64,000 bases of DNA from Candidatus Peregrinibacteria bacterium CG_4_9_14_0_2_um_filter_53_11 (GTDB lineage Bacteria > Patescibacteriota > Gracilibacteria > UBA1369 > UM-FILTER-53-11): the NCBI GenBank assembly GCA_002788775.1, contig PFRX01000028.1, positions 18,959 through 82,958 on the forward strand, in the 5' to 3' direction. Position numbers and translations under genes: made by a program. Each line of letters starts with the position of its first letter. Positions within the stretch are counted from its first letter, which is position 1. Below the pieces are notes generated by a model. It searched no databases. It had not been told where the DNA came from and saw only the letters and a list, made by a program, of their open reading frames with translations. Of this stretch, positions 46,083 through 61,412 are shown in pieces.

Positions 46083-47147
46083 ATGTTTACGACCCAAGAC
46101 GATACGCAAGCTGTGACTGCAATACCAGCAGTTAAGGAGCTTGTAAACAACTTGCTCATCCTCCTCTCCCCCAAAGAAAAACATATTATAGAAAATCGCT
46201 ACAGTCTGAATGGGCGGCCCCACTCAACGCTGGAGCGGATTGGCCAGGAGTTCGGCGTCACCCGGGAGCGCATTAGGCAGATCGAAAAAAATGCACTTAA
46301 GAAGCTCTCAAGAAACGTCGTCAACACAAAGCTCAACATCTTCAATCAGCTCGGCAATACGATCATACAAAAATACGAAGGACTCGTCCTCGAAGAAAGA
46401 ATCATCAGTGAGATACTAAGCCTCGTGAGCTCTCCCGAGACTGTTGACCGATCCTCAATTCGCCTCTCACTCGAGCTGGACAGCAATCTTGAGCGCGTTC
46501 CAAATACCATCAACTGCTATCCCTACTTCAAGCTAAAGACACTCGAGAAGAGTGAGATCAATCGTATCGCCAGCTGGGCCCTTAAGTATCTGACCAAGAA
46601 AAAAACTGTCGAGGCCCTCGATGCTCTGGTTGCAGCTTACTCAAAGGAGTTTGCAAAGAATATCAGCAAGCAGTTTATGAGCTCAGCCCTCTCCCTCGAT
46701 CGACGGCTGAAGCTCCTCAAAAAGGGCGTGGGACTCGCTTCATGGCGCTCGATTAATCCACGCACACTCCGTGACAAGATAACCTACATCCTCAAGGATC
46801 ATGGGAAGTCCCTTCACTACGTTGAAATTGCAAATCGCATTGCCGAGAGCAAGTTCGACAAGAAGATGATCAACGTACAGGCTGTTCACAACGAGCTGAT
46901 TCGCGATGAGACCTTCGTTCTTATCGGCAGAGGGATCTATGCGCTCCGTGCATGGGGATATGTTGATGGGACGGTCGCTGATGTCATTGCGGATATCCTC
47001 CGCACCAATGGTTCTCTCGAGCGCGACGCCATCATAGCTGAAGTACTGAAGCGACGGCAGGTTAAGCGGATCACGATCATTCTCAACCTTAAGAACAAGC
47101 CTATATTCGAGCGTGTGGGACGTAACGTCTACTCTCTCAAGGGTTAA
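46083..47147 (+). CDS. Sigma-70 region-4-like HTH protein with C-terminal HARE-HTH domain
   Basis: N-terminal LSPKEKHIIENRYSL...TLERIGQEFGVTRERIRQIEKNALKKL (region 4.2-like). C-terminal ILKDHGKSLHYVEIANRI...VHNELIRDETFVLIGRGIYALRAWGY (HARE-HTH, as in RpoE-delta). Confidence 0.6.
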   Translation: MFTTQDDTQAVTAIPAVKELVNNLLILLSPKEKHIIENRYSLNGRPHSTLERIGQEFGVTRERIRQIEKNALKKLSRNVVNTKLNIFNQLGNTIIQKYEGLVLEERIISEILSLVSSPETVDRSSIRLSLELDSNLERVPNTINCYPYFKLKTLEKSEINRIASWALKYLTKKKTVEALDALVAAYSKEFAKNISKQFMSSALSLDRRLKLLKKGVGLASWRSINPRTLRDKITYILKDHGKSLHYVEIANRIAESKFDKKMINVQAVHNELIRDETFVLIGRGIYALRAWGYVDGTVADVIADILRTNGSLERDAIIAEVLKRRQVKRITIILNLKNKPIFERVGRNVYSLKG

Positions 47148-47407: not shown

Positions 47408-50230
47408 CTACTCTACCTCGACAATCTCCACGTCATCGATCCACAGCTCGCCGACCTCGTGGTCGATGTAGCGGAGGCCATCGGCGGAGACCTCTCCGTC
47501 AGAAGAACGGAAAATTAGGCGGAAGTCTGACTCGTAGTTGTTGGGAACCGTGAAGGTTCGCTCGTAGTAGGTCCAGTCGTTCACGGTATAGAGAATAGGC
47601 AGCTCCTCAAAGGCAACGAGCTCAAAGTCCTGGTTTGAGTTGGCGATACCTAGACGAGGCGTCACCGAGCCGGTTACCTTGTACCAGAAGGAGAAGGTAT
47701 ACTGTTGGCCGGCTCTAACGGGAATGCCAAGTTGCTGCGTACCGGCATCGTCGCGGCGCTGGGGGATCGGATCAGGTGGCGTCGTAATGTAGAGAGCCTG
47801 CTCACCGGAGTGAACAACATCTCTCACTTTCTGGAAGATACCGGGGCCGGCAAAAGGCAGCCACTGATCGACACCATCAGCTTCCATATCACCATCTCGG
47901 ACAAAGGCGAGCTCGGGAACCTCCTCGATCAGCACCTCATCTAGGTACCCCTCACCATTGTTAATGCGGATAACGAGACGGAAGTCCTTGATAGTACCAT
48001 CGGCATTTACGCCGATAGCCTCGGGCGTGAAAAAGCGTTCGTAGGTCTTCCAGTCACCATTCGTTGGTTGGAGGTTGACCTGTACTCCTTCAATATCCAC
48101 ATTTGATGAGCGGTTACCAAGCGTGGTCGAGAGCTTACCCGAAACCAGCTTGTATTTGAAGGCATAGCGGTAGGTTTTTCCGGCAACAACCGGGAGGTAG
48201 AGCTGCTGAACTCCCGCGTTCTTACCACGTGTATCGAGGTAGATGCCCTGGGAGGCACTCGACGCCTCTGCCGAGGTCTTTTCAAGAGTGACAGGCCTGC
48301 CCCAACTCTTCCAAGCGTCCAGCCCCGGAAGCTCCATATCTCCATCACTCACATACTCTATGGCATCCACCGCTTCAATATTCACATCATCAAGGAAGGC
48401 CTCACCACCACGGACTCTGAGTACCATTCGGAAGTCCGGAATGATTACACCCTCGCCCGCTAGAGCTGACGGAGCCATAAAGTAGCGCTCATAGGTACGC
48501 CACTCATCCGGCGCTGCACTCAGAACGGTCACCTTGCTTTCGAGGTCACCATTCGAGGTGTGGATGCCCAAGTTCGTTTCGAGGGTTCCCGACTTGAGTT
48601 TGTATCTGAAGCTGTATTTGTAAGCCTGTCCTCCCAGTACGGCAAGACCAAGCTGCTGCACTCCGGCATGCCTATTTCTCGCATCAAGATAGAGACTCTG
48701 GCGTCCGGCTGAGAACTCAGTCGTGCTCTTAGATTTGGCCGTTGGCGTTCCCCAGCTGCGCCATGCGGCGACGCCGGCAGACTCCATCGTTCCATCATTA
48801 ACCAAGTTTGTTGAGACCTGCGCCTTCAAGTTGATGACAAATGAAGGAACCAGTGGGTCGTTTAAGTTGATCGTCATCCGGGCAGTACGCTCACCAAGAT
48901 TGGGCTGGGAGAAGCGCACTTTAAATTCGGTTGAGGCACCAACGACAAGAGCATCATTAGGCACTCCCACCAAAGTGAAGAGCTCAGCCTCAGCTCCGGT
49001 AAGAGCTACCCGTGGATTACCGGTAAGCAAGAGGGTATCGGTTCCCAGATTTGAAAGGCGAATCGTAACTTCTCCAACCTCATCGGGCGCCAAGATACCG
49101 AAACTCGCCTCACCTCCTGTAGAACGAACGGAGTCATTCACCGTCAGCTTAATGCTGGGCTGCCCTTCGACAACCGGAATCTTAATGCGTCCCAGATAAG
49201 TCGCAACGCGCGTAATATTACCGTCAAAAATCCTTATAAAGAAACCACGGAGGAGGTTGAAGCGAGCACGTGCGACCACATCAGCGGTATCGAGCCCCAG
49301 AGAGGCGAAGTTCACGCCGGAGCCATCGGGCAGAACGACTCCATCACCGGCAACGACCACAGCCGAGCCATCGGAGCGCGTCACGACGATCTCATTCCCC
49401 TGAGCTCCCTGATTAACATCTCCAACAGCCGGAGCACCAACAGACTGACCTACGTTCACCGGAAAGCCGGCCAGCGCCTGCCCTGTGGCTTTACTCAAGC
49501 CGAGCAGAGTTCCATTTCGCGTAACACCAAAAAGTTTATCTCCATCCTCAGCAAGAGGTTCTACAACTGCTGAAGGCGTTGCAAACTGAGCCGTTCGGGC
49601 CCACTGACCATTAGTTTCGGCATACAGTTCAATGCGATTTTGTCCGGGAAGAGCGACGGCAAGACCCCCCTCCGATGGTGCAGTGAGGGCCCCGGCCTCA
49701 CCCAGATTGAAGAGAGGTAGAGAAGTCCAGGTACCGTTCACCAAAGAATAGTCATAACGAACAACAGCCCCACCTGTTGTCGAAAGTACAACTGAATCCA
49801 AAGCACCAGCTACGCCACGTAAGACGACGGGATCATAGTGAACATCACCCGCGATAAGTGCGCTAACAACCTCATTGCCGCCTGATGAAAAGGCATTAAG
49901 GCTGTAGACGTTCTGGGCGGTTCGCGTGACTACAACGACCTCGTTAAGTCCATTCCCCGCCACATTGGCCATCACCGGTGAGGAGACGACCACGGCATTA
50001 TCTATAAAGATCGGAAAGCCGCTCAGGAGGTTCCCCTCATATGAGTAGCCCTGAAGAGCTCCATCGCTGCTTGTTGCGAAGCGTTCGGCTCCGGGAGAGG
50101 TAGTATCGAGCTCACCGAGGGTGGGCAGAAAACTGCTCTCACGCGCGAGCGCCGTTGTGGAAGCCACGATTAGTGAGGTGAGCGCCAGCAGAGCCAGCAG
50201 ACCGAGTTTTTTACGGATTGGGATAACCAT
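47408..50230 (-). CDS. Secreted 940-aa protein: FG-GAP/VCBS-like N-terminal region, ASH/choice-of-anchor-D-like domain, three CBM-like jelly-roll modules
   Basis: Signal peptide. LLSGFPIF...ANVAGNGLNEVVVV motifs. LSNLGTDTLLLTG. Three ~150-aa paralogous modules. Confidence 0.7.
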   Translation of the reverse strand: MVIPIRKKLGLLALLALTSLIVASTTALARESSFLPTLGELDTTSPGAERFATSSDGALQGYSYEGNLLSGFPIFIDNAVVVSSPVMANVAGNGLNEVVVVTRTAQNVYSLNAFSSGGNEVVSALIAGDVHYDPVVLRGVAGALDSVVLSTTGGAVVRYDYSLVNGTWTSLPLFNLGEAGALTAPSEGGLAVALPGQNRIELYAETNGQWARTAQFATPSAVVEPLAEDGDKLFGVTRNGTLLGLSKATGQALAGFPVNVGQSVGAPAVGDVNQGAQGNEIVVTRSDGSAVVVAGDGVVLPDGSGVNFASLGLDTADVVARARFNLLRGFFIRIFDGNITRVATYLGRIKIPVVEGQPSIKLTVNDSVRSTGGEASFGILAPDEVGEVTIRLSNLGTDTLLLTGNPRVALTGAEAELFTLVGVPNDALVVGASTEFKVRFSQPNLGERTARMTINLNDPLVPSFVINLKAQVSTNLVNDGTMESAGVAAWRSWGTPTAKSKSTTEFSAGRQSLYLDARNRHAGVQQLGLAVLGGQAYKYSFRYKLKSGTLETNLGIHTSNGDLESKVTVLSAAPDEWRTYERYFMAPSALAGEGVIIPDFRMVLRVRGGEAFLDDVNIEAVDAIEYVSDGDMELPGLDAWKSWGRPVTLEKTSAEASSASQGIYLDTRGKNAGVQQLYLPVVAGKTYRYAFKYKLVSGKLSTTLGNRSSNVDIEGVQVNLQPTNGDWKTYERFFTPEAIGVNADGTIKDFRLVIRINNGEGYLDEVLIEEVPELAFVRDGDMEADGVDQWLPFAGPGIFQKVRDVVHSGEQALYITTPPDPIPQRRDDAGTQQLGIPVRAGQQYTFSFWYKVTGSVTPRLGIANSNQDFELVAFEELPILYTVNDWTYYERTFTVPNNYESDFRLIFRSSDGEVSADGLRYIDHEVGELWIDDVEIVEVE
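47411..48808 (-). repeat. Three tandem ~450-nt paralogous coding modules (CBM-like)
   Basis: Each module starts with x-DG(T/D)ME-x-x-G-x-x-x-W and contains AG(V/T)QQLG/Y and W(R/K/T)TYER. Modules begin near 48808, 48357 and 47910. Confidence 0.75.
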
Positions 50231-50255
50231 AAAGTGGGGGAAATTAAGGGGTCAG

Positions 50256-51788
50256 TTACTGTTGTAGGTCGATATCTTCTTGCTCTCTCTCCCATGGAGC
50301 GATCCACTGGTCGAGCTGCTGCTGAGAGATTGTTGCGGGGAGTTTAAAGAGGAAGGGAAGGGGCGTGTAATCTTTTTTATTGGCAACTCCCATAATATAG
50401 CCCTCGTCGTTGATCGACTGGACCGTGTAACTGAACGGCCCCCACTCGTAGGTCTGCCAGTCCAGATTTTCGGGAAGAAGTTTCTCAATCTGCACAACCT
50501 TCTCGCCATCCCATAACAGAGGACGCATGCGGGGATAAAAGGCCTTATCCTCAACAAGGCCCGATCCAACCACCTGCCCCTTGTTATTGAGGCTGAGGTT
50601 TTCTGCACCCTCCCAGAGCTTCTTCATTACACCATCCTGCCAAAGATAGGTAGCGGAGGGAAATGCGTTATCAGGCTCGGCAGGCTCCTCGGCAAATCCC
50701 ACCACCTGCCCCTGTTCGTTGATCTCGAGCGGGGTGTTCCTCGCGCCGCCAAAGGTCGGTAAGACGGTTAGCGTGCCATGATCAAATAAGAAACCTATAT
50801 CGTAGGCAGAATCCGGCTTACTCGGCATCGTGCCGATCATCTGGCCCTTGTTATTGATGCGAAAGACGGAGATGTTTTTACCTTTGTTTGGAAGCTCATC
50901 ATTATGAAATGCCCCATCGTACCAGAGGAAGCTGGCAGACTCGGCTCCGCCCCTCAAGACTTGATCCCCAACAACCTGTCCAAGATCGTTAATTGAAGTA
51001 GCTGTGCCTTCAAAACCGCGGCCGCCAATTAAGGTGATCTTGCCATCGTCCCAGAGGAAGGGGCGATTAGGAGTGTCTCCTTCTCTGCCACCAACAACTC
51101 CCACAACCTGCCCCTTACTATTAACATCGAAAGGCACGTAGTAGTAGTTGGAGTCGGTAGAATAGGCCCGGGAGCTACCATTGCTCCAGAGATGGCCCTC
51201 AAAGGCCAGTGCTCCTTCACTATTAAGGTGGAGGTCGCCATTTGAAAGATGATCGGTCCCCAACTCCAGCTCGAGCACTCCCCCCTCGGGAAGGTAGAGC
51301 TTGGGTAGCTTCCGACTCTGCTGGATCGTATAAGCCTCCTCCTTATAAGTCTTGAGCTGAACCTCCGGAAGAGTTACCACATCTTTTTCAGAGTGGCGCT
51401 GATCGGCCTCCAGATAGCCCTGATCAATTGCGACCTTCTGAGCAGACTGAATAAGATAGAGCTGCTCCGTCTCAGCCGACCGAACAAAAGTCGTTCGTCG
51501 CAGCCTTAGGAGCTCGCGGAACGAGACCTGCCGAGCATCACGATAGCTGAGTCCCAACTCTCTGAGTGTTTTTGAAGAAATAGCCACCCGCCTGCCCTTT
51601 TCTACGACGTAAACGGTACGACGATTTTTAGCCCGCACCAGATCGACTCCCAGTGCCGTTGCCTTTTCAGAGACGACGCTGAGCTGCCCGCTCTCGCCTC
51701 CCGCACCAACGGCCGCATGAGCGGGAAGAGTCCCGACAAGAAGGGTTAGAAGCAGAAGTCCGCTGGTGAGTGAGATGGATTTTTTCAT
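50256..51788 (-). CDS. Secreted HAF-repeat-like (beta-propeller) protein
   Basis: Signal peptide, then repeated units ...INDLGQVVG..., NNKGQMIG, NEQGQVVG, NNKGQVVG, NDEGYIMG alternating with FLW-DG / YLWQDG / LLWDG. This is the pattern of the HAF extracellular repeat. Confidence 0.7.
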   Translation of the reverse strand: MKKSISLTSGLLLLTLLVGTLPAHAAVGAGGESGQLSVVSEKATALGVDLVRAKNRRTVYVVEKGRRVAISSKTLRELGLSYRDARQVSFRELLRLRRTTFVRSAETEQLYLIQSAQKVAIDQGYLEADQRHSEKDVVTLPEVQLKTYKEEAYTIQQSRKLPKLYLPEGGVLELELGTDHLSNGDLHLNSEGALAFEGHLWSNGSSRAYSTDSNYYYVPFDVNSKGQVVGVVGGREGDTPNRPFLWDDGKITLIGGRGFEGTATSINDLGQVVGDQVLRGGAESASFLWYDGAFHNDELPNKGKNISVFRINNKGQMIGTMPSKPDSAYDIGFLFDHGTLTVLPTFGGARNTPLEINEQGQVVGFAEEPAEPDNAFPSATYLWQDGVMKKLWEGAENLSLNNKGQVVGSGLVEDKAFYPRMRPLLWDGEKVVQIEKLLPENLDWQTYEWGPFSYTVQSINDEGYIMGVANKKDYTPLPFLFKLPATISQQQLDQWIAPWEREQEDIDLQQ

Positions 51789-51807
51789 GGGGGTGGTTAA
51801 GATAGTA

Positions 51808-52215
51808 CTAATTGGCTTGGATTAGGTGTGCATCGGGAGAAGGCACTGCTTCAGGCTTCTGCTCATCTTCGTCAAAAAAAATCTTATCTTCCAAATCGAT
51901 ACAGGGCCCCATTTTCGTTATATTAGGGCTCGTCGTGTCGAATAGGCAGACGTAACGAGCATTATCACTTAGACGTAGTTCAATACGGCCGTATCCCGCA
52001 TGGTTCTGCCCAAAACTATAGGCTTGGTGCTCTCCGTCCGGATAGACTACCTCCAACCTCTTAGTATCGTCTCGGCCCGGTGAATCATTCTCAACCCTGC
52101 TGAACGACACCCTGGTTCCATCCGGTGTGATCCAAAGGGTACCGGAAGATCGTCCGCAGGCAGCCACGAGTATCAGTAGTGTAAGTGAGAGAAGTGTTAT
52201 TATGGTGATTTTCAT
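51808..52215 (-). CDS. Small lipoprotein (135 aa), function unknown
   Basis: Lipobox LVAACG. Lies in the Rhs operon, 31 nt downstream of the preceding gene. Confidence 0.6.
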   Translation of the reverse strand: MKITIITLLSLTLLILVAACGRSSGTLWITPDGTRVSFSRVENDSPGRDDTKRLEVVYPDGEHQAYSFGQNHAGYGRIELRLSDNARYVCLFDTTSPNITKMGPCIDLEDKIFFDEDEQKPEAVPSPDAHLIQAN

Positions 52216-52246
52216 GCTTTAGGTTTTGAAAATAATCATATACGGA

Positions 52247-52828
52247 TTAATAGATTTTAATATAAACCCACTCATCATCAATTCTTTCAGGTGCTAACTC
52301 TCTCCTTTCAAGTACAACTTTTCCACGAACCGTCATAGGAAAATTGACCTCGTAAAGACATGAAAAAATTTGCGGACAATAAAGTATCATCTTTTCTCCA
52401 CCTATTGCTCCAAAACTTTTAAAAAAACTGAGTGCGAAGGCTGGACTTGAGCCAATAATTGAAACCTCCTTGCTCGCGGTAACGCTGGGTTCGTATGTGA
52501 GGAGATCATATCCTAGCGCATCGTCTGGATCGGGAACAGATACAACATACTTGGGAACCAAATCTGAGATACCCACAGGATATTCACCAAGATCCAATTT
52601 ATATTGATTTATTGCCTGTACGAGTGGGGAGTATTGAGCCAATGAACGAGACAGAAATGCGTTCTCAATAAATGGCGATAGTACCATAAATAAGAATAAC
52701 AAAAATACATTACTCAGTAGCAGCATATATTTTCTAGGGAAAAAAATTATCTCCGCATACCTTTTTTGCAAAAAATGGTTGATAACATTAAGTGCCGATA
52801 AAAATAGGAGAAAGTAAAGGTATGTCAT
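52247..52828 (-). CDS. AT-rich small membrane protein (193 aa); candidate immunity protein for the Rhs toxin
   Basis: Starts 8 nt after the Rhs stop. Two N-terminal TM helices. Shares the low G+C of the toxin tip. Confidence 0.55.
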   Translation of the reverse strand: MTYLYFLLFLSALNVINHFLQKRYAEIIFFPRKYMLLLSNVFLLFLFMVLSPFIENAFLSRSLAQYSPLVQAINQYKLDLGEYPVGISDLVPKYVVSVPDPDDALGYDLLTYEPSVTASKEVSIIGSSPAFALSFFKSFGAIGGEKMILYCPQIFSCLYEVNFPMTVRGKVVLERRELAPERIDDEWVYIKIY

Positions 52829-52836
52829 GCTAGTGC

Positions 52837-55800
52837 TTATTTAGTCTTCCAGTAATCATAGCCGGGAGCAGAAATAAAAGTGTACCCTAACTCATATTCA
52901 AGTGCTTTGTTGAGTTTTTGGTCATCAATATTTAAACCGTATTTTTGGTACAAAGTTATGCCGGTTTTAATAAGCATCTGATCCGTTGGATCGTCAAAAT
53001 AAGATGCATACCAGTCGGTGTCAGAAGTACGGCTATATATTTGTGCGGCACCAGCACCGGAAAGCAATGTAGTGGAGGGTATTCCAGCTGCTGCGCCTGT
53101 GTAACCAAAATTTATATTGCCTCTGGCATCAAAAAGCACTCTGTTGTCAGTTACACCAGCTAATGTAACCGGCTCTGTAGAACCAAAACGTTTTACATCC
53201 TGAATTTTATAATCCCAATCTCCACCTGGTTTGACGTGATTAAAAAACTGAATATATGTTGATGCTCTTTCCGCCTCATATAGTAACCCGGCTGCAGCTT
53301 TTGCCCCCACTCTTGCTCCGGGCCTCCACCATGGTATCTTATTCGCCTCTTTCAGTGCTTCCGCACGTACTAACAAGTCGTGCTGATAAGCATTAGCCAT
53401 CTCTTTCCCGTTAGCTTTCAACTTCTGGATAAGATCACTCGTTGGGTCAAAACAGATGGAGCAAACTGATGTTGCAGATGCTGAGGAACTGGCAAGTAAG
53501 ATAGGTGTCGAGGCATAACTTGAGTTATCTTCTATAATCTGTTCCGTTACCGCCTCCGACTCATTTCCCGTCGGGTCAGTATACCTTAAGGGGTTATTAT
53601 TTGCGTAAGCGTAGGAGTTCCTTGAGATCAGACTACCAACTGCCCCCATGTACTTGTCGCGGCTTATAAAGCGGCCCGTTGTTGGGTTGTAGTAGCGGGC
53701 GTTGTAGTAGAAGAGGTTGGACTCGGAGTCGTACTCCTGGCCCGTAAAGAGGTAGCGGGTCTCATCACTTCCAAGCGAACCGATAATCTCTCCGTAGGGA
53801 TCGTAGTCGTACTGCTGAGTGATCTCACCGGCTTCATTACTCAACATAACGGCGGAGCCGAGGGCATCGGAGTGTACGAAGATGATTCGTCCTTGGGCGT
53901 CAATCTCTGCCACCTCTCCAACTCCCTGAACGATCGTCCTTTCCACTCCACCATTGGTGTTGAGCTCGTTCAGGACGGTCAGCCCATCATTGAAGTAGTA
54001 GGTCGAGTCGGAGCCGTTGACGGTCTTCTTGATTCGATTGCCCGCGTCATCATAGGCAAAGGTCAGGCTGTTCTCATTGAGCTGAGGCATGAAGTTGGGA
54101 CGAGAGGCGTCCGTGTAGCGAATCTGGGAGAGTCGGTTCTGAACATCCCAGCTGTAGCTGACGTTCTTGAGTGGCTGGCCCAGACGAGAGTAGCTCTCAC
54201 GGGTGAGTGAGCCGTTGCCGTCATACTCCATCGCAACGGTCAGACGGCCGTTGGTCGTGTAGGAGCGGAGCTCCTCAGAGTCGTTTGCGTAACTGTAAGA
54301 GGTCGAGCCGAGCGCCGAGCCCAGGCTCAGACGATTTCCTTGAGCGTCATAGTTAAAGCGGAGGTCCTGAGCTCCGGCTACGTCGGTATAGTCGACAGTC
54401 TTGAGCTGATCGAGAAGATCATAGGTGTAGTTGATAGTTCGGTCGGTATCGGTACCATCCACAGAGGTGCGCTCCACAAGCTGAGTTCTATTACTCTGAG
54501 CATCGAAGTCGTACTCGTGAGCGAAGAGCTCGTTGTTCTGAGCGTCACGGAGGGTAATGTTATCGAGACGATTCAGTGAGTCATAGCCGTAGCTTGTGGC
54601 CAAGCCGTTCCCATAGGTAAGTTCGGTTGGCTGGGCGAGGGCGTTGTACTCATAGGTCGCGAGTGCACTTCCACCGAAGGTCACAGTGTCGAGCAGGCCT
54701 CGGCTGTCGTAGTTGTAGTCCAGGAGCCGTCCGGCGGCATCCGTTAGAGTGTTGAGCTTACCATCGGCCGTGTAGGTGCGGTTCACAGCATACGACTGAC
54801 CGTTGAGGTCGGTGTAGGTTTTCGTCTCACGGGTTCTCAGGTTGAGGAGGTCATACTGATAGCTGGTTGTACCAACAGGCTCGACGAGCTGGGTAAGCTG
54901 ATCCCAGTTATCGTAGCTGTAGTTGAAGATTGAGCCATCATCAAGAGCCTTGCGGGTAAGGCGACTCTTAGCGTCGTAGGCGAAGGTCGTGAGCTGCCCC
55001 TCTCCATCGGTCTTCTGAGTAATGTTCCCCAGAGCATCATAGTCAAAGCCTTCCGTCTTATTGCCCGGGTGGGTTATCTGCGTAACGCGGTTAAGGGCAT
55101 CGTAACTAAAGGCGGTGACAGTACCCCCCGTCGTCTCGGCGAGACGATTACCGTTGTTATCATAGGTGTAGCTGGTGACTGTTTCTACTGCGTTGCTCTC
55201 TGTTAAGAGGCGGTTGAGCTTGTCGTAGGTGTAGGTCGTCGTGTGATTGAGCCAGTCGCTCTCGCTGGTGGTGTTGCCCGCGGCATCGTAGAGATAGTCG
55301 AGAGTAGCTCCCGAGACGTTGGTAACGGTTGTGAGACGGTTCGCATTGTCATAGTCGTAATTGGTAACGGTGTTATCCGGGGCTGTAACCTGCACCTTGT
55401 TGCCGTTGCCATCAAAGACTGTGACCGTAAGATTCTGGTCGGCATCACGCTGCTGGATGGCTCTGCCGAAGTCGTCATAGGTAGAGCTGACCGTGCGTCC
55501 AAGCTCATCAGTCCTGCTCGTCAGATTAGAGAGCGCGTCGTAGGTGTAGCTAACATGGGCCCCCTTGGCATCCGTCGTCTGAGTCTTTCGATCAAGATTA
55601 TCGTAGGTGTGAGTGGTGACGTGGGCACTGTTGTTACCATTGGCATCCTTGCGGTCAACAACCTGCAGCAGATTGTTCTGCTTGTCATAGGTGAAGGTCG
55701 TCTCTTTGTTCAAAGAGTTCCGCTCCAAGATGAGGCGGTTCATCTCGTCATAGCCATAAGTTGCCGTATTCCCATCCGCATTGCGCAGAGCGGGGTCGGC

Positions 55801-58800
55801 GTTGGCACGGGCATCGCGAACACCTGTTCTATTACCGTTCGCATCATAGGTGTAGGAGGTGAGGCCACCCGCCGTATCAGTTACGGAGGTCAGGCGTCCA
55901 AGGAGGTCATAGGTCGTGGTCGTCGTCTGCCCCTTGGGATCGGTCGTACTTACGAGCTCATCAAAGCCATCATAAGTGTAGGTGGTCTCAACAAATGAGG
56001 TCTGACCGGCATCAACGAACTTCTTCGATGAGAGGAGGTTGTTACGACCATCATAGCTAAAGACTGAAGACTGGCCCTGAGTGTTGCTCTCGCTCACCTT
56101 GTTACCATTGCGGTCGTACTGAAACGTCGTCGTATTATAGGGGGCAGCTATAGCTGAGACACGATTGGCATCGTCATAGCTGTAGCTGGTGACAACATCG
56201 CGCGCATCAACATCCCTCACCTTGTTGCCAACGAAGTCGTACTCACTACTCGTGAAGATGGTCTCACCGCGAGGGCCTGTGATCGACGTTGAGAGAAGGC
56301 TCTCCTCGATGTCAGTGTCGTAAACATAGGTCGTGACACGTCCCTGTGGATCGTTCTTCTGGATAAGATGGTCCTCACTGTCGTAGATGTAGGTCGTGAC
56401 ATTTCCCGCCGGATCCTGGGCCCGCTTCAGGTTGCCGTGACTATCGTACTGGAACTGAGAGACAAAGCCGCGCGCGTTGGTCACACTCGTCTTGTTACCA
56501 AAAACATCGTAGACGTAGCTTCGCTGAACCAGCTGAGTTGAGCCATCGGGAAGGGTTACCGTAATCGACTCCCCCGTTCTGTAGTTCTGGGCGGCATCGT
56601 AGGTGTAGTCGGTGACGTTGTTGTTCTTATCCCATGAGCGGAGGATGTTTCCCCTATTGTCATAACTAAAGCGCTCCTGCCCACCGAGATCGTAGTTGAT
56701 GGTAAGGAGGTTTCCGTTACTCTGGTCGTAAACAAAGTTGGCAGATCGGATAACAACCGTTGCCGGGTTGACGAGAGAGGTTGCCGTCTTGGTCTGAACA
56801 CTGACCTTGTTAACTACGGGGTGGTACTGATAGGTCGTGACCGTGTTCCAGCCGTGACTAAATGGTTGCTGCTGACGGGTTACTCTGCGGTACTGATCAT
56901 AGTCGTAGAGCGTCGCATTGCCGTTTGGATCGGTAACACGCGTGGCCATGCCATCAGGATTATACTGGTATGAGGTCGCTCCACCATTATCGCCTTCTTT
57001 TTCGTAGATCTTAAGACCCTCCTGATCAAAACAGGTATAGGTCTTGTAGAAGTCGGGATCATCACCTGAGCGGAAGTTTTTCACGGTCGTACATGAGGTG
57101 CTTCCGGGGACGTTTCCGTCGGGAGCATCCGTGTAGCTCAAGGTGTAGATGCGTCGTTGATCGTTGGCACCGAGACGAGGGTTCTTTTCGTCCTGGCGGA
57201 TGACACGTCCTTGATCGTCATAGGTATTGTAGAGGACCGTTCCACGCGCATCCGTATAGGTGGCCATACGGTCGTTATCATAGGTGAAGGTTCGAACGAG
57301 ATTTTCAGTTGAGCCGTTAAACGAGCGGACATTGGTCACCGTGGTAAGGAAGCCACTTTCGTAACCATAGCGAACCAGCCGGTGGTCCTGAGTATTCAGA
57401 TTATCGTGAACTTCGGTAATCTTATCGAACATCTCCCCATCATCCTCTGCACCATAAACGAAGCTGACCGTTCGGCCCGAGGCATCGGTAATAGTTGTAA
57501 GAAGTGGAATATCGCGACGCTGAATATAAGTGAAAGCGGTGACATTTCCCTTAAGATCAGTAATCTGCTCAACCATGCCGAGCTGCGTTGTCCTCTTATA
57601 GGTAAAGTCATAGCGAACGCCATCAAATGTGGTGTAAGTCAGGAGGGCATTGTCCGGCGTTCCGTTGTTGACCAAGGTTCCATCAACACCTTTCGGTGCA
57701 ACGAAGGTCGCGCCGTTATCATTGGTCGTAAAGAGGGCCGCGAGGGTACCTCCAAGATAGACGAGAACATTTCTCGTAGCTGGATCCTGGTAGTAGTACA
57801 TGTTGGTGGAGTGATTCCATCCAAAACCGATACGGTTATTCTTGTCGACCACGCGGCTGTTGTAGCTGCGCGTTATGTTTATGGGAATACCACGCCCCTT
57901 GAGCTCAAGATCGGTCTGAATGAACTCAAAGACTCCCGTACGGATGTTAACCGGATCGGCGGCGTAGTTGATTGCCAGCTTGTCAACCAAGGTCGAAAGC
58001 CAGTTTGAGGCATTCAGCTGGAAGAGGGAGACCGTCTGAGCACCATTAACATTAGTTCCGACATACTTCTCTTCAAGATCAGAGAAGGTGTCTCTATCGG
58101 TATCAGAGAGCTCTTCCGGATCTGGTGGGGGGGTTGCACCTCCTCCGCCACCTCCGCCCGGGCTACAGTTTCCACAGTAGCCGCTGCGCTCAACGGTAAA
58201 GATCTGATCCGAGTCAACCGCATTGTTGTTGTAGTTACGCTCGCTCAAACTGTTTGCGGTGTTCATGCCAAGGACAAGCACATAGCTATCGTTGAAGGGA
58301 ATATTTCCGGGCACAACACCTGAGAGCGTCCTCAAAACATTGGCACCGGCAGAGATATCGAGGGAGGCCGGATTGTGCGACGTTAACTGGTAAAGCTCCC
58401 CTGTGCTCGTCGACTGGAGTACAAGAATGTAGGGAAGACCGATGGCCGTGATATTGCCCGAGTTCATGATACGAGCCTGCGCCTCGAGACGCTCGCCTGA
58501 GATAAATGTGTGGACGTTCTGAACGTCCAGATTGACGGGGTAGATATCGCGAGTCTCAGGGACGGTAAAGCTCACTGAGCTCTTATTGTTACCTTCACTG
58601 CTCTCATTGGTGATCTCGTCCAGATTGTCGACCCAGAAGGAGAAGTAGTAGGTCCCCGAGGCAGTCCCCTCCGGAACGGTATAACTTATAGATTCGCTGC
58701 TCGTATTACTTCCGCTACCACTGGCCTGAAGAGTTCCAAACGAGTCATTTCCTATGCTATTTCCATCTGAGTAAGAAGGGTTGGAGCGACTAATATAATA

Positions 58801-61284
58801 GCGCACGTGGCCGGAGTCGTTCGCCGCACCCTGACCATTATTTCGAACCTGCAGGCTGAGCGTCGTGGAGTCACCGGGATAGACCGAATTATCCGTTAGG
58901 CTGGCATTGGCGTAGGTGATATCAGAAAGTTGCGCACGCGCATTTACGGTAAGCGCACGCGTGAACTTGTTATTGCTCTCGTTCGACTCGGCAATCTGTT
59001 GCAGTGAGTCTATCCAGTAGTAAAAAGTGTAGTTTCCGGGAGCCAGATCATTGGGGATTGTATAGCTGAAGCTAACCTGAGTCGTGCTATTTGCATTAAT
59101 CGCGTTAAATGTCCGGTAGCCGACATAGTAGGTACCGGAATAATCCTCGCCAACTCCACTGGGTCTCAGGTAGTAAGAGATGCGCCCGGTCCGTCCGGTG
59201 CTAACACTCCCACGGTTGGAGATCGTATTTGTGATAGTGTAAACCTCGCCTTGATCGATACTTGCCACAGCGGATGAGCCCCCGGAAGTAAGATCCGGGA
59301 AGAGAGCCGGTGCCGTGGTATTTACCTTAAGGTAAGGACCGTTGTCATTAGCATTCCGTGAAGAGCTGAAAATCATCAACTTGTCGGGCCAAGCGGGGCG
59401 GGCACCGCTGTTCCACGTGGGTGTTGGCTCAACCAAGAGGCCATAGTTATTTCGAGCACCACTGAACCAGTCACGAACGAGGTTACTGACCGTCCAGCTG
59501 TACCAGCCGATGCTCTGAGTGTTTACATCTCGAAAACCGATGTCGGTCATCCTACCTCGGATGTCATTGTAGTGGAAGTCCCAATCACGTTGCCAGAAAG
59601 TATCAATCCTTCGCGCAACCGTCGAGACGCTTCCCCTGAAACTACCATTCCCCAGAGTCGTTCGGAGATACATTAAGAGGAAGGCGGAGTTGATCGTGTA
59701 GTTCGCGGGGATCGCACTGATATTGAACTTCATGATCGGATGACGTGTCGCGAGGTCACGACTGGAATAGCCCATATAAAGATCGGCTGATTCGGTCCAG
59801 CTACCAGCTATATACCTAAGGTAAAAGTCAGTTGTCGAAAAGCTATTGTTCTGACAAGAAAGCCCGTTCCCATTGAGGTCGCGATTTCCTGCAAGACAGA
59901 AGTAGTACTCGGGATCGATCGTGACCGGGTACTGGCGCTCTTTGGACAAAAGGTAGTCGGCGCTAAGCTTGAGCCCGATCCTCACGACACTCTGAGTGTA
60001 GTCGATATCGACAATCTGCTTAACAGGGAAAACCTGATCGGAGAGCTCGAGCTCTTCCGGGGTGGTGCCGGCACTTTTATCATAGACTAAAGCATCGGTG
60101 ATCCTGAAGAGACTTCCACTGGGAGTCTTAACATTCAGAGTAGTCTTCTCCATCTCAGTCCGGCCGGCCTCAAGAGGCTTTCCGTTGGAATCGATCAGGA
60201 GCGACCCCGCAGGAAGCTTATACTGCTCCCAGAATACGGCATCCTCGCCTTCCTTCAAATTAGTGGGAAGAGAGTTGAGTATAATTTTTCGCTCTCGGTA
60301 CGCTCCCTTATCGGCGAACTGTACGTCGATTCCCTTATAGACGTTCTCCAAGGTAGTCACCGTGGCCGTATCCTCATCTCTCTGGCTAAACTGAGGCTTG
60401 AGTACGGGCCAGTTCGTCGCCCCTTCCTCGTAAGCGCCCGGCATAATGGTAATGGCCTCACCATCTTCCAGCGGAACACTGAAGAAGTAACCTTCATCGA
60501 CGGCCTCGTTGAACTGGGTGCCCTGAAGCTCATTAAACAAGTTCCAGCCGGCTTCTCGGACCATGAGCTTCTCCCCATCTTTGTAGAGAAGTCGAGGCTC
60601 AGAGAAAAGGCGGTACTCATACTCGCCATTTCCCAGATCGACCACATCAGTCATCTGGTCTACGACTTGCAGATGGTCCGCGATGAACTCGGGTGAGTCT
60701 TTGGTGTAGTCATCGAGTTTGTAGTAGGGATAGATCTTAGTCTCTTGAGGATTAATCGTCGCCTCCGGGTCGGCCTTGACCTCTGTGTCAGCCTCCACCT
60801 CAGGTTCGGTAAGCGGAGTGGCATCTTCTTCTTCTGGGAAGGGACCATAGTAGAGCTGCTCGCCGCTGTCATCCAAGACCTCTGGAGAGTAGGGGCCGTC
60901 CGGATTAGCGAGAGCTTCCTCGACAGCCGATTCTGCGATGGGCTCGGCAAGAGGGAGTTCTTCAGAGTCGTCCTGGACGACCGGGGCGACGGGCTCGACG
61001 GGAAGTTCAACCACCGGAGCCGGCTCGACAGGCTCTTCCACAAGCTCCACGGGAGCCTCTGCGGGCTCGACGGGCTCCTCTGCAACCGGTGCCGCATCTT
61101 CTTTCGCCGGCGCGGGTGTCTCTTCTTCCACAACCGGCTCGGCGGGAGGCGCCTCCACGGCGGGAAGCTCCACTTGAGTCAAGGGAGGTTCTGAGACCGT
61201 CGTCTGAGCAAGGGCTGGAAGCAGCGACTCAGCTACGAGCAAAAAGCTAAAGAAAACCGACGTGGCTACCTTCAAAAGTTTCAT
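52837..61284 (-). CDS. Rhs/YD-repeat polymorphic toxin (about 2815 aa) with Sec signal peptide
   Basis: MKLLKVATSVFFSFLLVAESLLPALAQ signal. P/E/A/V-rich spacer, DNRLRE-like and about 4 CARDB-like domains, poly-Gly linker. Rhs shell runs from DPVNIRTGVFEF through tens of YD repeats to YYNARYYNPTTGRFISRD...NNPLRYTDPTG, then a 242-aa C-terminal tip. The track ORF extends to 61317. Confidence 0.92.
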   Translation of the reverse strand: MKLLKVATSVFFSFLLVAESLLPALAQTTVSEPPLTQVELPAVEAPPAEPVVEEETPAPAKEDAAPVAEEPVEPAEAPVELVEEPVEPAPVVELPVEPVAPVVQDDSEELPLAEPIAESAVEEALANPDGPYSPEVLDDSGEQLYYGPFPEEEDATPLTEPEVEADTEVKADPEATINPQETKIYPYYKLDDYTKDSPEFIADHLQVVDQMTDVVDLGNGEYEYRLFSEPRLLYKDGEKLMVREAGWNLFNELQGTQFNEAVDEGYFFSVPLEDGEAITIMPGAYEEGATNWPVLKPQFSQRDEDTATVTTLENVYKGIDVQFADKGAYRERKIILNSLPTNLKEGEDAVFWEQYKLPAGSLLIDSNGKPLEAGRTEMEKTTLNVKTPSGSLFRITDALVYDKSAGTTPEELELSDQVFPVKQIVDIDYTQSVVRIGLKLSADYLLSKERQYPVTIDPEYYFCLAGNRDLNGNGLSCQNNSFSTTDFYLRYIAGSWTESADLYMGYSSRDLATRHPIMKFNISAIPANYTINSAFLLMYLRTTLGNGSFRGSVSTVARRIDTFWQRDWDFHYNDIRGRMTDIGFRDVNTQSIGWYSWTVSNLVRDWFSGARNNYGLLVEPTPTWNSGARPAWPDKLMIFSSSRNANDNGPYLKVNTTAPALFPDLTSGGSSAVASIDQGEVYTITNTISNRGSVSTGRTGRISYYLRPSGVGEDYSGTYYVGYRTFNAINANSTTQVSFSYTIPNDLAPGNYTFYYWIDSLQQIAESNESNNKFTRALTVNARAQLSDITYANASLTDNSVYPGDSTTLSLQVRNNGQGAANDSGHVRYYISRSNPSYSDGNSIGNDSFGTLQASGSGSNTSSESISYTVPEGTASGTYYFSFWVDNLDEITNESSEGNNKSSVSFTVPETRDIYPVNLDVQNVHTFISGERLEAQARIMNSGNITAIGLPYILVLQSTSTGELYQLTSHNPASLDISAGANVLRTLSGVVPGNIPFNDSYVLVLGMNTANSLSERNYNNNAVDSDQIFTVERSGYCGNCSPGGGGGGGATPPPDPEELSDTDRDTFSDLEEKYVGTNVNGAQTVSLFQLNASNWLSTLVDKLAINYAADPVNIRTGVFEFIQTDLELKGRGIPINITRSYNSRVVDKNNRIGFGWNHSTNMYYYQDPATRNVLVYLGGTLAALFTTNDNGATFVAPKGVDGTLVNNGTPDNALLTYTTFDGVRYDFTYKRTTQLGMVEQITDLKGNVTAFTYIQRRDIPLLTTITDASGRTVSFVYGAEDDGEMFDKITEVHDNLNTQDHRLVRYGYESGFLTTVTNVRSFNGSTENLVRTFTYDNDRMATYTDARGTVLYNTYDDQGRVIRQDEKNPRLGANDQRRIYTLSYTDAPDGNVPGSTSCTTVKNFRSGDDPDFYKTYTCFDQEGLKIYEKEGDNGGATSYQYNPDGMATRVTDPNGNATLYDYDQYRRVTRQQQPFSHGWNTVTTYQYHPVVNKVSVQTKTATSLVNPATVVIRSANFVYDQSNGNLLTINYDLGGQERFSYDNRGNILRSWDKNNNVTDYTYDAAQNYRTGESITVTLPDGSTQLVQRSYVYDVFGNKTSVTNARGFVSQFQYDSHGNLKRAQDPAGNVTTYIYDSEDHLIQKNDPQGRVTTYVYDTDIEESLLSTSITGPRGETIFTSSEYDFVGNKVRDVDARDVVTSYSYDDANRVSAIAAPYNTTTFQYDRNGNKVSESNTQGQSSVFSYDGRNNLLSSKKFVDAGQTSFVETTYTYDGFDELVSTTDPKGQTTTTTYDLLGRLTSVTDTAGGLTSYTYDANGNRTGVRDARANADPALRNADGNTATYGYDEMNRLILERNSLNKETTFTYDKQNNLLQVVDRKDANGNNSAHVTTHTYDNLDRKTQTTDAKGAHVSYTYDALSNLTSRTDELGRTVSSTYDDFGRAIQQRDADQNLTVTVFDGNGNKVQVTAPDNTVTNYDYDNANRLTTVTNVSGATLDYLYDAAGNTTSESDWLNHTTTYTYDKLNRLLTESNAVETVTSYTYDNNGNRLAETTGGTVTAFSYDALNRVTQITHPGNKTEGFDYDALGNITQKTDGEGQLTTFAYDAKSRLTRKALDDGSIFNYSYDNWDQLTQLVEPVGTTSYQYDLLNLRTRETKTYTDLNGQSYAVNRTYTADGKLNTLTDAAGRLLDYNYDSRGLLDTVTFGGSALATYEYNALAQPTELTYGNGLATSYGYDSLNRLDNITLRDAQNNELFAHEYDFDAQSNRTQLVERTSVDGTDTDRTINYTYDLLDQLKTVDYTDVAGAQDLRFNYDAQGNRLSLGSALGSTSYSYANDSEELRSYTTNGRLTVAMEYDGNGSLTRESYSRLGQPLKNVSYSWDVQNRLSQIRYTDASRPNFMPQLNENSLTFAYDDAGNRIKKTVNGSDSTYYFNDGLTVLNELNTNGGVERTIVQGVGEVAEIDAQGRIIFVHSDALGSAVMLSNEAGEITQQYDYDPYGEIIGSLGSDETRYLFTGQEYDSESNLFYYNARYYNPTTGRFISRDKYMGAVGSLISRNSYAYANNNPLRYTDPTGNESEAVTEQIIEDNSSYASTPILLASSSASATSVCSICFDPTSDLIQKLKANGKEMANAYQHDLLVRAEALKEANKIPWWRPGARVGAKAAAGLLYEAERASTYIQFFNHVKPGGDWDYKIQDVKRFGSTEPVTLAGVTDNRVLFDARGNINFGYTGAAAGIPSTTLLSGAGAAQIYSRTSDTDWYASYFDDPTDQMLIKTGITLYQKYGLNIDDQKLNKALEYELGYTFISAPGYDYWKTK
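52840..53565 (-). other. C-terminal toxin domain of the Rhs protein (polymorphic toxin type 44 / Ntox44-like?)
   Basis: The 242 aa after the DPTG cleavage motif. KPGGDWDYK ... GNINFGYTGAAAGIPSTTLLSGAGAAQI resembles the motif pattern I associate with the Ntox44 family. Lower G+C than the Rhs core. Confidence 0.5.
53566..57957 (-). other. Rhs shell (YD-repeat core plus RHS-associated core domain)
   Basis: Bounded by the N-terminal plug motif ADPVNIRTG (57957) and C-terminal PxxxxDPxG (NNPLRYTDPTG, 53566-53577). Repeated xxGxxxxYxYDxxGNL units throughout. Confidence 0.85.
60925..61200 (-). repeat. Low-complexity Pro/Glu/Val/Ala-rich tandem coding repeats (Rhs N-terminal spacer)
   Basis: VEEPVEPAEAPVELVEEPVEPAPVVELPVEPVAPV. 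Creates spurious ORFs in several frames. Confidence 0.75.
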
Positions 61285-61412
61285 ATGAGGGAGGATAAAA
61301 ATGTTCGTAACACACAATGTCCCGCCGGAAGGCGAGTGACATTAGTGGCATAATATATCACGAACTCGGCCCAAAGCCAGCAAAGCCAAAGGAAAACGGT
61401 GGCCTGACCAGG

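Follow-up and report, generated by a model that had tools for sequence, protein, structure and literature searches.

The locus analyzed here raises the question of whether the C-terminal end of a large Rhs protein from an uncultured bacterium, together with the small gene behind it, is a toxin/immunity cassette that was exchanged as a unit and, if so, where its toxin acts. The locus lies in a 64,000-nucleotide stretch (the window; all coordinates given without a locus handle refer to it) of contig PFRX01000028.1, positions 18,959 to 82,958, from Candidatus Peregrinibacteria bacterium CG_4_9_14_0_2_um_filter_53_11 (GenBank: GCA_002788775.1). The Rhs open reading frame (ORF) occupies positions 52837-61317 on the minus strand and encodes 2826 amino acids (aa) counted from a TTG codon. 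Its shell ends in the motif DPTG (residues 2581-2584, codons at 53566-53577), which is followed by a tip of 242 aa (52840-53565) and a TAA stop codon (52837-52839). The next gene, ORF193 (52247-52828, minus strand, 193 aa), has its ATG at 52828, 8 nt past the Rhs stop. After a gap of 31 nt comes lipo135 (PJC36951.1; 51808-52215, minus strand, 135 aa). A previous reading of the letters alone (the sequence-only reading) had proposed that the tip and a tightly coupled downstream gene form an AT-rich, swappable cassette. The positions it gave for the Rhs gene, DPTG, the tip, ORF193 and lipo135 proved exact, the motifs it quoted (KPGGDWDYK, GNINFGYTG and LLSGAGAAQI) are present in the tip, and the 8-nt spacing bears out the tight coupling. 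We consider it likely that the locus is a Sec-exported Rhs toxin/immunity cassette in which ORF193 serves as the immunity gene, the toxin has a target in the cell envelope and lipo135 is an orphan.

The base composition changes at the junction between shell and tip. The Rhs shell has a GC content of 0.529 and a GC content at third codon positions (GC3) of 0.624, whereas the values are 0.431 and 0.364 in the tip and 0.371 and 0.325 in ORF193; lipo135 has 0.485 for both. The AT-rich part had been estimated by eye at 30-40% G+C; this holds for ORF193 (37%), but the tip is a little higher (43%), and the shell, described as well over 50%, measures 53%. Overall the window has a GC content of 0.534 with a standard deviation of 0.03 in windows of ~600-700 nt. 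The lowest value anywhere in the 64 kb is found at ~52.2-52.9 kb, in the tip and ORF193, and GC falls below 0.44 in just ~1.8% of the sliding windows. The maximum likelihood change-point for GC3 in the Rhs gene is codon 2594 (~53538), where GC3 drops from 0.624 to 0.352; the 2-lnL interval covers codons 2559-2599 and includes DPTG. The sliding-window profile, on which the sequence-only reading had staked its claim, is not flat, and the GC3 break coincides with the DPTG junction. A two-change-point fit to all bases delimits a low-GC island from ~53260 to 52172 (GC 0.378). The island ends at the boundary between ORF193 and lipo135, so that the tip and ORF193 are in and lipo135 is out. Its other boundary, in terms of all-base GC, lies ~300 nt behind the junction because a Ser/Ala-rich linker at the start of the tip (53464-53565, minus strand, residues 2585-2618; far shorter in a homologue from Magasanikiibacteriota) is rich in GC at codon positions one and two. 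The break at the junction is a codon-usage signal and not an amino-acid signal.

Homologous loci also place a point of exchange at the DPxG motif, as the sequence-only reading had claimed. The Rhs protein of a metagenomic locus (L006) shares 45% identity with the window protein over 1017 aa, and the alignment ends exactly at residue 2584. Past its own DPSG the L006 protein continues with an unrelated tip, which has a borderline similarity to LHH/HNH nucleases. Behind this tip follow a 166-aa gene without a transmembrane (TM) segment and then a member of the ORF193 family (P0006). Such a layout is what one would expect if an older tip/immunity pair had been displaced by a new one and its immunity gene had stayed behind. 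The nearest relative of the tip, 62% identical, occurs in locus L004/L012; L012 is a Candidatus Magasanikiibacteriota genome with 33% GC, and it is identical to L004 where the two overlap. The locus is syntenic with the window, with genes for Rhs, an ORF193 homologue, a HAF-repeat protein and a large surface protein. Identity to the window is 50% in the shell beside the tip, 43% in ORF193 and 25-31% in the flanking genes. The tip in L004 has the GC content of its genome (0.33 vs 0.33), whereas the tip in the window is 10 points below. These data fit a scenario in which the tip and ORF193 would have been acquired from a low-GC lineage of the candidate phyla radiation (CPR) and then partially ameliorated; the direction of the transfer is what we infer from this comparison. 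Two other loci (L001 and L002) match the window with 100% identity and thus add no independent information, and a protein of 2559 aa with 13 matching stretches (P0005) was rejected as a false positive caused by low-complexity repeats.

The same comparison bears on the alternative that the cassette was inherited vertically and that its AT-richness comes from amino-acid composition, relaxed selection or selection for weak expression of a rapidly evolving cassette. Such an origin would agree with the locus order kept in L004/L012 and with the ORF193 homologue there, which has a GC content of 0.23, also ~10 points under its own genome. Furthermore, orphan cassettes and orphan tips, paralogues, mobile-element genes and repeats were not seen within the 64-kb window. 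However, vertical inheritance is at odds with a break that occurs in GC3 (0.62 to 0.35) and at the junction, with a tip that is native in composition in L004 and 10 points low in the window, and with a tip that is better conserved between the two organisms than the shell, and far better than the flanks. It also does not agree with the replacement of a tip at the same motif in L006. Taken together, we regard vertical inheritance as unlikely; that an Rhs toxin/immunity cassette was swapped here, and that its immunity gene is ORF193, is in our view highly probable.

The tip belongs to the polymorphic toxin family Ntox44, as the sequence-only reading had suspected from its resemblance. In a Pfam scan the last 246 aa match PF15607 with 67.4 bits (cutoff 24) over the full length of the profile (1-104 of 104). 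The toxin module (52840-53463, minus strand, residues 2619-2826), which follows the Ser/Ala-rich linker, exceeds the Pfam domain: it contains in order a CSIC motif, a long helical hairpin, the Ntox44 core (Pfam envelope 52942-53250, minus strand) and a short C-terminal beta-hairpin, and the CSIC motif and the helical hairpin are conserved in the nearest relatives. The family was described with the signature DxK, GNxxxG and DxxxD and with an all-alpha fold (Zhang 2012). All three motifs are found on the minus strand in the window. The DxK motif lies in GGDWDYK (53206-53226), where DYK corresponds to residues 2702-2704 and D2702 and K2704 are invariant; the GNxxxG motif is GNINFG (53104-53121, residues 2733-2738) with the invariant N2734; and the DxxxD motif is FDDPTDQ (52978-52998), with D2775, D2776, P2777, D2779 and Q2780. 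An alignment of 60 sequences and a core alignment of 23 indicated that the tip has every residue that is invariant in the family (D, K, N, G and D plus DDPxDQ); the DxK residues are invariant as columns D86 and K88 of alignment A3 and D21 and K23 of alignment A7. An AlphaFold2 (AF2) model of the tip, which begins at residue 2617, has a mean predicted local distance difference test score (pLDDT) of 80.7, with values below 50 for the first 7 residues, and is all-alpha apart from the terminal hairpin. A word-indexed search with the tip returned a single weak match, and an alignment was required as the query.

ORF193 is predicted to be a membrane protein with most of its mass outside the cell. Two TM helices, TM1 (52766-52822) and TM2 (52667-52723), precede a predicted outward-facing alpha/beta ectodomain (52250-52645; all minus strand). 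The loop between the two helices, predicted to be cytoplasmic, has a net charge of +3 and the N-terminus is uncharged, from which an extracellular position of the C-terminal domain is predicted. An invariant pair of cysteines, Cys151 and Cys157 (52358-52378, minus strand), would fit with this location. TM1 is kept in L012, an argument for placing the start of ORF193 at the upstream ATG. A confident AF2 model (pLDDT 88.5) shows, besides the two TM helices, one more helix and a sheet of six strands. A word-indexed search had found a single match, to a metagenomic copy that is identical and has its start called at Met35, and the protein resembled an ORFan initially. An exhaustive HMMER search, however, uncovered 35 relatives at E<=1e-3. 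P0003 (45% identity), P0004, P0006 and P0007 form a close subfamily, which can be aligned from end to end. The wider family is characterized by 1-4 N-terminal TM helices, the motif xYxxDxGxYPxxLxxLVPxY and a beta-rich domain, with Y76, Y83, P84, L90, V91, Y112, Y150-C151-P152, C157, R182 and W187 as invariant residues. A scan of metagenomes with a 3-sequence alignment of ORF193 gave 528 pattern matches, none of which was confirmed. The family is previously undescribed, membrane-anchored and immunity-like.

The surroundings of ORF193 and its four closest relatives point to a link with toxins. The gene is located directly 3' of an Ntox44 tip at a distance of 8 nt in the window and of 5 nt both in L004/L012 and in L008/L009 from Hainich groundwater. 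Other members are found inside arrays of small genes (L005 and L007), and an orphan copy is the one already mentioned in L006; the contigs of L005, L006 and L007 are short. The conserved adjacency, the co-variation with the tip and not with the shell, the foreign composition and the orphan copies together make ORF193 the candidate for the cognate immunity protein. A distant member, P0011 (L010 163-870; L011 584-1291), combines four TM helices with the same ectodomain. Its gene sits between heterodisulfide-reductase-like genes of an organism with 59% GC and is 8-13 GC points under its flanks.

The motif of the family resembles pseudopilin G of the type II secretion system (T2SS), and this raised the possibility that ORF193 is a pseudopilin. 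The candidate was rejected: ORF193 scores 12.3 bits against PF08334 (T2SSG; cutoff 21, E=0.19), and its N-terminus, MTYLYFLLF..., does not contain a prepilin-peptidase site (G↓F/M-T-L-x-E). A broader version of the idea is that ORF193 is not an immunity protein at all but an accessory of the Rhs protein, which serves in tethering, export or release, or an unrelated pseudopilin-like neighbour. The weak T2SSG similarity is stronger in two relatives (P0008, 4e-10; P0013, 8e-4), distant members of the family are found outside toxin loci, and CPR bacteria rely on pilus-like surface structures. The partner nevertheless follows the tip and not the shell: in L006 the shell is homologous, yet another gene comes first behind it and the ORF193-family gene is pushed to second place. 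ORF193 also has the same foreign composition as the tip, the spacing of 5-8 nt is kept in three lineages, family members occur in immunity-like arrays (L005, L007), and the protein has no prepilin-peptidase motif and remains below the Pfam cutoff. We therefore find an accessory role or a chance neighbourhood improbable, and retain ORF193 as the candidate immunity protein.

The sequence-only reading had named lipo135 as a second candidate for the immunity function, a proposal which turned out to be weak. The gene product has a lipobox (LVAAC, Cys20) and is thus a predicted lipoprotein; it is small and extracytoplasmic by prediction, and its gene is co-directional with ORF193 and 31 nt away. These properties speak for lipo135 as the cognate partner instead of ORF193, or as a required second component. 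Homologues of lipo135 and ORF193 lie, moreover, within ~1.1 kb of each other in a small immunity-like gene array in L007; the lipo135 homologue there (L007 133-567, 35% identity, E=7e-30) is the single one detected. The families co-occur twice, in the window and in L007. But lipo135, with its GC content of 0.485, is outside the low-GC island; in the syntenic Magasanikiibacteriota locus (L004/L012) the HAF gene follows the partner gene with no lipo135 between them, and a tblastn search of the other ~130 Ntox44 loci did not detect the gene. A role of lipo135 as cognate or second immunity component is thus very improbable. It is probably a neighbouring, possibly orphan, immunity-like lipoprotein outside the swapped cassette.

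The two N-terminal TM helices of ORF193 had been called atypical for an immunity protein in the sequence-only reading. This view did not survive a survey of Ntox44 partners. We inspected the ORF directly downstream of Ntox44 at 80 loci from species-representative genomes and at 50 metagenome loci, and scored the downstream ORFs of >=80 aa for a hydrophobic (TM) segment in residues 1-40. Such a segment was present in 63/65 of the scored genes from genomes and in 37/40 from metagenomes; hence a membrane-anchored or polytopic gene follows Ntox44 in 100/105 loci. Control ORFs of similar size from the same loci contained a TM segment in 78/220 cases (Fisher p=8e-16), and the second downstream gene in 12/29. 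Clustering, which was done against pseudo-replication, yielded 34 partner families: 19 have a single anchor, 12 are polytopic and 3 are without a TM segment, so that 31/34 are membrane-associated. The polytopic partners have 2-5 TM segments and little soluble mass. A membrane-anchored partner would be atypical for an RNase; for Ntox44 it is the rule. It looks as if the element that is out of place is the label "predicted RNase" for Ntox44, rather than the anchor of ORF193.

The commonest partner in the survey (loci L016-L141) is DUF5412 (PF17428), which was found in 36/105 loci, including those of Saccharibacteria and Gracilibacteria. This makes DUF5412 a strong candidate for an immunity family of Ntox44. 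ORF193 is not a member: it has no Pfam match to DUF5412, and hhalign gave a probability of 0.2%. A common origin of the ORF193 ectodomain and 12 other partner families was also considered and rejected, with a best profile-profile probability of 15%. Several otherwise unrelated partner families (L037_d1, L021_d1 and L072_d1) end with a strand of the form R/K-[IV]-D/N-x-x-W-x-[YF]; examples are RIDDEWVYIKIY in ORF193 (52250-52285) and KVDDKWFYFKQR in L037. The shared strand may reflect convergence on a toxin-binding element, or chance. Ntox44 itself is spread over Firmicutes, Proteobacteria, Actinobacteria, CPR, plasmids and phages.

The RNase label, which Ntox44 carries in Pfam, in GenBank and in many papers on genomes, goes back to a survey of polymorphic toxins in which a nuclease activity of Ntox44 was given as an explicit default guess, and in which no immunity family was given for this domain (Zhang 2012). 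Later papers on Ntox44 carry on the term "predicted RNase" without an assay, and in the literature searched we found no RNase assay of Ntox44, and nothing on a pairing of Ntox44 with DUF5412 or on DUF5412 itself. An E. coli study is sometimes cited in this context; according to a review, only Rhs-CT1, CT3 and CT5 were tested there, and Rhs-CT5 carries a toxin-55 domain.

Domain fusions provided additional information on the site of action. One Clostridium plasmid encodes a protein with four copies of PG_binding_1, an Rv2525c-like glycoside hydrolase domain and Ntox44, and a GH25 lysozyme gene adjoins it. In a Clostridium botulinum plasmid two copies of PG_binding_1 are fused to Ntox44, followed by a DUF5412 lipoprotein (the plasmid proteins are located at L142 2010-3863 and L143 2811-4214). 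Stand-alone Ntox44 proteins of 130 aa exist in Enterobacter, beside Hcp, and in Pantoea; their partner genes overlap them and encode N-terminally anchored proteins. Among tips of other kinds, a Tse3-muramidase tip (L003) has an anchored partner and the LHH-like nuclease tip (L006) a non-TM partner.

Locus L003 (3-4646; GCA_964395895.1) contains a compact array of tip/partner pairs. The array comprises a gene that ends in an unidentified C-terminal domain and whose partner lacks TM segments, an orphan Rhs fragment tipped by Ntox44, the stop codon of which is overlapped by the gene of a polytopic partner, and a second orphan Rhs fragment with the Tse3-muramidase tip and its N-terminally anchored partner. 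It illustrates that the location of the partner follows the site of action of the toxin.

A different kind of stand-alone Ntox44 is encoded by Paenibacillus larvae phages (Bloom and 13 related phages; L146 2106-2693). These proteins have 195 aa and a Sec signal peptide, their genes are counter-oriented to the neighbours and without a partner gene, and they are annotated as "bacterial toxin 44" or "polymorphic domain RNase protein". We considered Ntox44 as a phage endolysin domain, but this idea was unsupported; the phage matches are secreted, moron-like genes outside the lysis module.

These observations can be held against the possibility that Ntox44 is, after all, a cytosolic RNase, the membrane partners of which intercept the toxin or block its translocation, or which has a cytosolic immunity gene elsewhere. 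[quoted passage not shown] A cytosolic RNase is, however, difficult to reconcile with membrane-associated partners at nearly all loci, when the LHH-like tip of L006 has a non-TM partner and the Tse3-muramidase tip of L003 an anchored one, and with the fusion of Ntox44 to peptidoglycan-binding and glycoside-hydrolase-like domains; the lack of an assay in the searched literature also counts against it. We judge an RNase to be unlikely and prefer an envelope toxin.

An extracytoplasmic target of Ntox44 is reasonably probable, because the immunity domain is predicted to face outward, membrane partners are nearly universal and Ntox44 is fused to peptidoglycan-binding domains. The occurrence of both anchored-globular and polytopic partners, the invariant Asp, Lys and Asn residues and the fusions to peptidoglycan-binding domains favour an enzyme that would act on peptidoglycan or on a membrane-proximal precursor. 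The polytopic partners, which make up 12/34 families, are also an argument for another kind of envelope toxin, namely a membrane-inserting or pore-forming protein without enzymatic activity, comparable to Tse5-CT or to glycine-zipper toxins, the partners of which would shield the membrane. Polytopic immunity proteins are typical against pore-formers, for example in the colicin and CdiA-EC93 systems. The predicted all-alpha fold would suit a pore-former, and so would the core, which with the pattern G-x-x-G...IP...LL-x-AAGAAQ is rich in small residues. In the Enterobacter protein (L144 2896-3288) the core helix YGAVGYAACIPAKILLIAAGAAQW is glycine-zipper-like and passes the TM hydrophobicity threshold. 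This protein is, however, the only one of four scored Ntox44 proteins to do so, and the window tip was not among the four. The invariant D, K, N and DDPxDQ look catalytic or ligand-binding, and the fusions with peptidoglycan-binding and glycoside-hydrolase-like domains suit a wall-directed enzyme better. A pore-former consequently seems rather unlikely to us, and an enzyme directed against the envelope remains the preferred reading of the tip.

Export of the toxin is the next question. The Rhs protein matches PF05593 (RHS_repeat; Pfam scan, E=1e-94) in 25 stretches and TIGR01643 (YD_repeat_2x; NCBIfam scan, E=1e-69) in 14. It also contains accessory domains in its N-terminal part, together at 57784-59787: a DNRLRE domain (59320-59787, NCBIfam scan), two CARDB domains (Pfam scan; 58957-59298) and DUF6531 (57784-57957, Pfam scan), all on the minus strand. 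The Rhs repeat-associated core (TIGR03696; 53566-53805, minus strand, residues 2505-2584) scores 73.6 bits against a cutoff of 32.5 over positions 1-75 of the 76 in the profile; it stops at residue 2584 and its end reads NNPLRYTDPTG. The core includes RYYNPTTGRFISRD (53656-53697). The residue behind DPTG is N, unlike the common L, and the PxxxxDPxG junction is otherwise canonical. At the N-terminus a Sec signal peptide (61207-61284, minus strand, residues 12-37) is predicted from the sequence, with a basic n-region, MKLLK, a hydrophobic core and a cleavage site between ALA and Q; the peptide MKLLKVATSVFFSFLLVAESLLPALA is followed by QT. The true start of the Rhs protein is likely Met12 at 61284. 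PAAR, VgrG, Eag and other parts of a T6SS were not found by the Pfam and NCBIfam scans in the Rhs protein or in the scanned neighbours. The protein thus lacks the marks of a T6SS-delivered Rhs effector and has a Sec signal peptide instead. With this signal and no T6SS element, its nearest architecture is therefore the WapA type and not the T6SS type.

From these elements the following mechanism can be proposed. The Rhs protein would be exported by Sec, as the signal peptide suggests, and displayed on the cell or released. By analogy with the family, the motifs of which are seen here, the Rhs shell would enclose the tip, and the aspartyl autoprotease of the core would free the tip at DPTG. Recombination at the junction would have brought the tip and ORF193 into the genome with 53% GC, with a low-GC relative within the CPR as the source. 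When a neighbouring cell is touched, the Ntox44 module of ~208 aa could reach its wall, or the outer face of its cytoplasmic membrane, and damage a component of the envelope, be it peptidoglycan, a lipid-linked precursor or the membrane. In the producer, ORF193 would reside in the cytoplasmic membrane, and its predicted outside domain of ~130 aa would bind the toxin that comes from kin and block it.

Several points weigh against this reading. The TM calls in the survey come from a simple Kyte-Doolittle window over mechanically called ORFs, with control ORFs that were unverified, and the search patterns leaned to Firmicutes. The adjacency of Ntox44 and the ORF193 family occurs in 3 independent lineages only, all of them uncultured low-GC or CPR bacteria. 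Some of the AT-richness of ORF193 is intrinsic to the gene, as judged from its Magasanikiibacteriota homologue. The non-toxin context of P0011 means that the fold is not exclusively one of immunity proteins. Foldseek found nothing significant for the tip model in PDB and BFVD, and no significant structural neighbour for the ORF193 model in PDB (best E values for the two models 0.4-0.6); sequence and profile searches of PDB with the tip returned matches to Rhs shells alone, or none. Related structures are not available through sequence or through fold, and the chemistry of the toxin is therefore unreadable from homologues. The peptidoglycan-binding fusions could serve surface retention instead of substrate targeting. 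Finally, we infer toxicity, autoproteolysis, neutralisation and topology, each of them, from sequence. In general the basis of the analysis is comparative inference, simple TM prediction and short metagenomic contigs.

The locus can be compared with known systems at several levels. The closest architecture is that of WapA/WapI from B. subtilis, which was reportedly characterized by Koskiniemi et al. in 2013 as a Sec-dependent, wall-associated YD/Rhs toxin that acts in a contact-dependent manner. WapA and the window Rhs protein are alike in the Sec signal, the absence of T6SS parts, the YD shell, the Rhs core and the DPxG-type junction. Both have a polymorphic C-terminal toxin with the immunity gene next to it, and both belong to a cell with a single membrane. 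They differ in that the WapA tips are tRNases with a small cytosolic WapI, whereas the window has Ntox44 and a partner with two TM helices that is predicted to face outward. WapA also has wall-binding repeats; the window protein has DNRLRE, CARDB and DUF6531 domains instead, and a CPR host. The Rhs effectors of T6SS, for example P. aeruginosa Tse5 and the PAAR-Rhs-CT proteins from E. coli, likewise have the Rhs cocoon, the core and the PxxxxDPxG junction, as well as exchangeable C-terminal toxins and orphan tip/immunity modules. Unlike these effectors, the window protein comes without PAAR, VgrG and Eag, and its predicted route of export is a signal peptide.

The Ntox44-DUF5412 pairs of Firmicutes, Saccharibacteria and Gracilibacteria have the same toxin domain with the same invariant residues. 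The start of the DUF5412 partner lies no more than a few nt from the toxin stop, and the protein combines an N-terminal anchor or lipobox with a small beta-rich ectodomain; ORF193 is different in its two TM helices and in its predicted pseudopilin-like ectodomain of helix plus sheet. A functional analogy exists with TelC/TipC of S. intermedius. Whitney et al. are said to have described in 2017 a T7SS LXG protein, TelC, that acts as a lipid II phosphatase, and a membrane-anchored, outward-facing immunity protein. The analogy consists in a toxin that is harmful from outside, a tethered extracellular immunity protein and an Asp-rich conserved motif. It is an analogy only; there is no detectable similarity in sequence or fold, as neither the profile of Ntox44 nor the tip model matched a PDB entry, and the delivery system is another one. 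The end of the RHS core of the Tc toxin components YenC2 and TccC3 aligned with the shell part of a search profile. The TcB/TcC shells enclose a C-terminal toxic domain, which is released by aspartyl autoproteolysis. Tc toxins are, however, insecticidal tripartite complexes with a TcA injector, and nothing comparable is present in the window. The window locus is an ordinary Rhs toxin/immunity cassette in an unusual host, the uncultured Peregrinibacteria.

The surroundings of the cassette are shared in part with Magasanikiibacteriota. Common to both are, in this order, the Rhs gene, the ORF193-family gene, a gene for a HAF-repeat/DUF3466 protein (50256-51788 in the window) and one for a large CBM_4_9 surface protein (47408-50230 in the window). 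The stretch from Rhs to CBM_4_9 (window 47408-61317; L004 1-5929) looks like a conserved surface-protein cluster of CPR bacteria. Just downstream of the cluster, on the opposite strand, a 354-aa protein with Sigma-70 region 4 and HARE-HTH domains is encoded at 46083-47147. None of nine genes at 35.5-61.3 kb has a recognisable Shine-Dalgarno sequence in the 30 nt upstream of its start; the absence of such a sequence from ORF193 is uninformative because the other genes of the window are without one too. A scan for promoters and terminators performed no better than on shuffled sequence. None of the intergenic gaps on the way from Rhs to the 940-aa gene has a terminator-like site; the one site found is inside the HAF-repeat gene (~51460-51477). 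The five genes from Rhs to the 940-aa gene may be one transcription unit.

Interbacterial weapons have been little studied in Peregrinibacteria. The analysis adds an undescribed immunity-like family and the first partner families for Ntox44, among them DUF5412. It makes a testable case against a widely propagated RNase label, and it offers evidence for the sharing of cassettes between two CPR phyla. In the widest sense, and with a slight lean in its favour, the data suggest that Ntox44 is a widespread all-alpha envelope toxin that is countered by at least ~30 unrelated families of membrane immunity proteins, that ORF193 founds a CPR-specific, pseudopilin-like one among these, and that CPR bacteria engage in a Sec-dependent, Rhs-based envelope warfare with cassettes exchanged between Peregrinibacteria and Magasanikiibacteriota. 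The neighbourhood pattern of Ntox44 yields candidates for immunity proteins and predicts an extracytoplasmic target. If this is confirmed, thousands of genes would have to be re-annotated and a new envelope-targeting toxin fold would be added to those already known.

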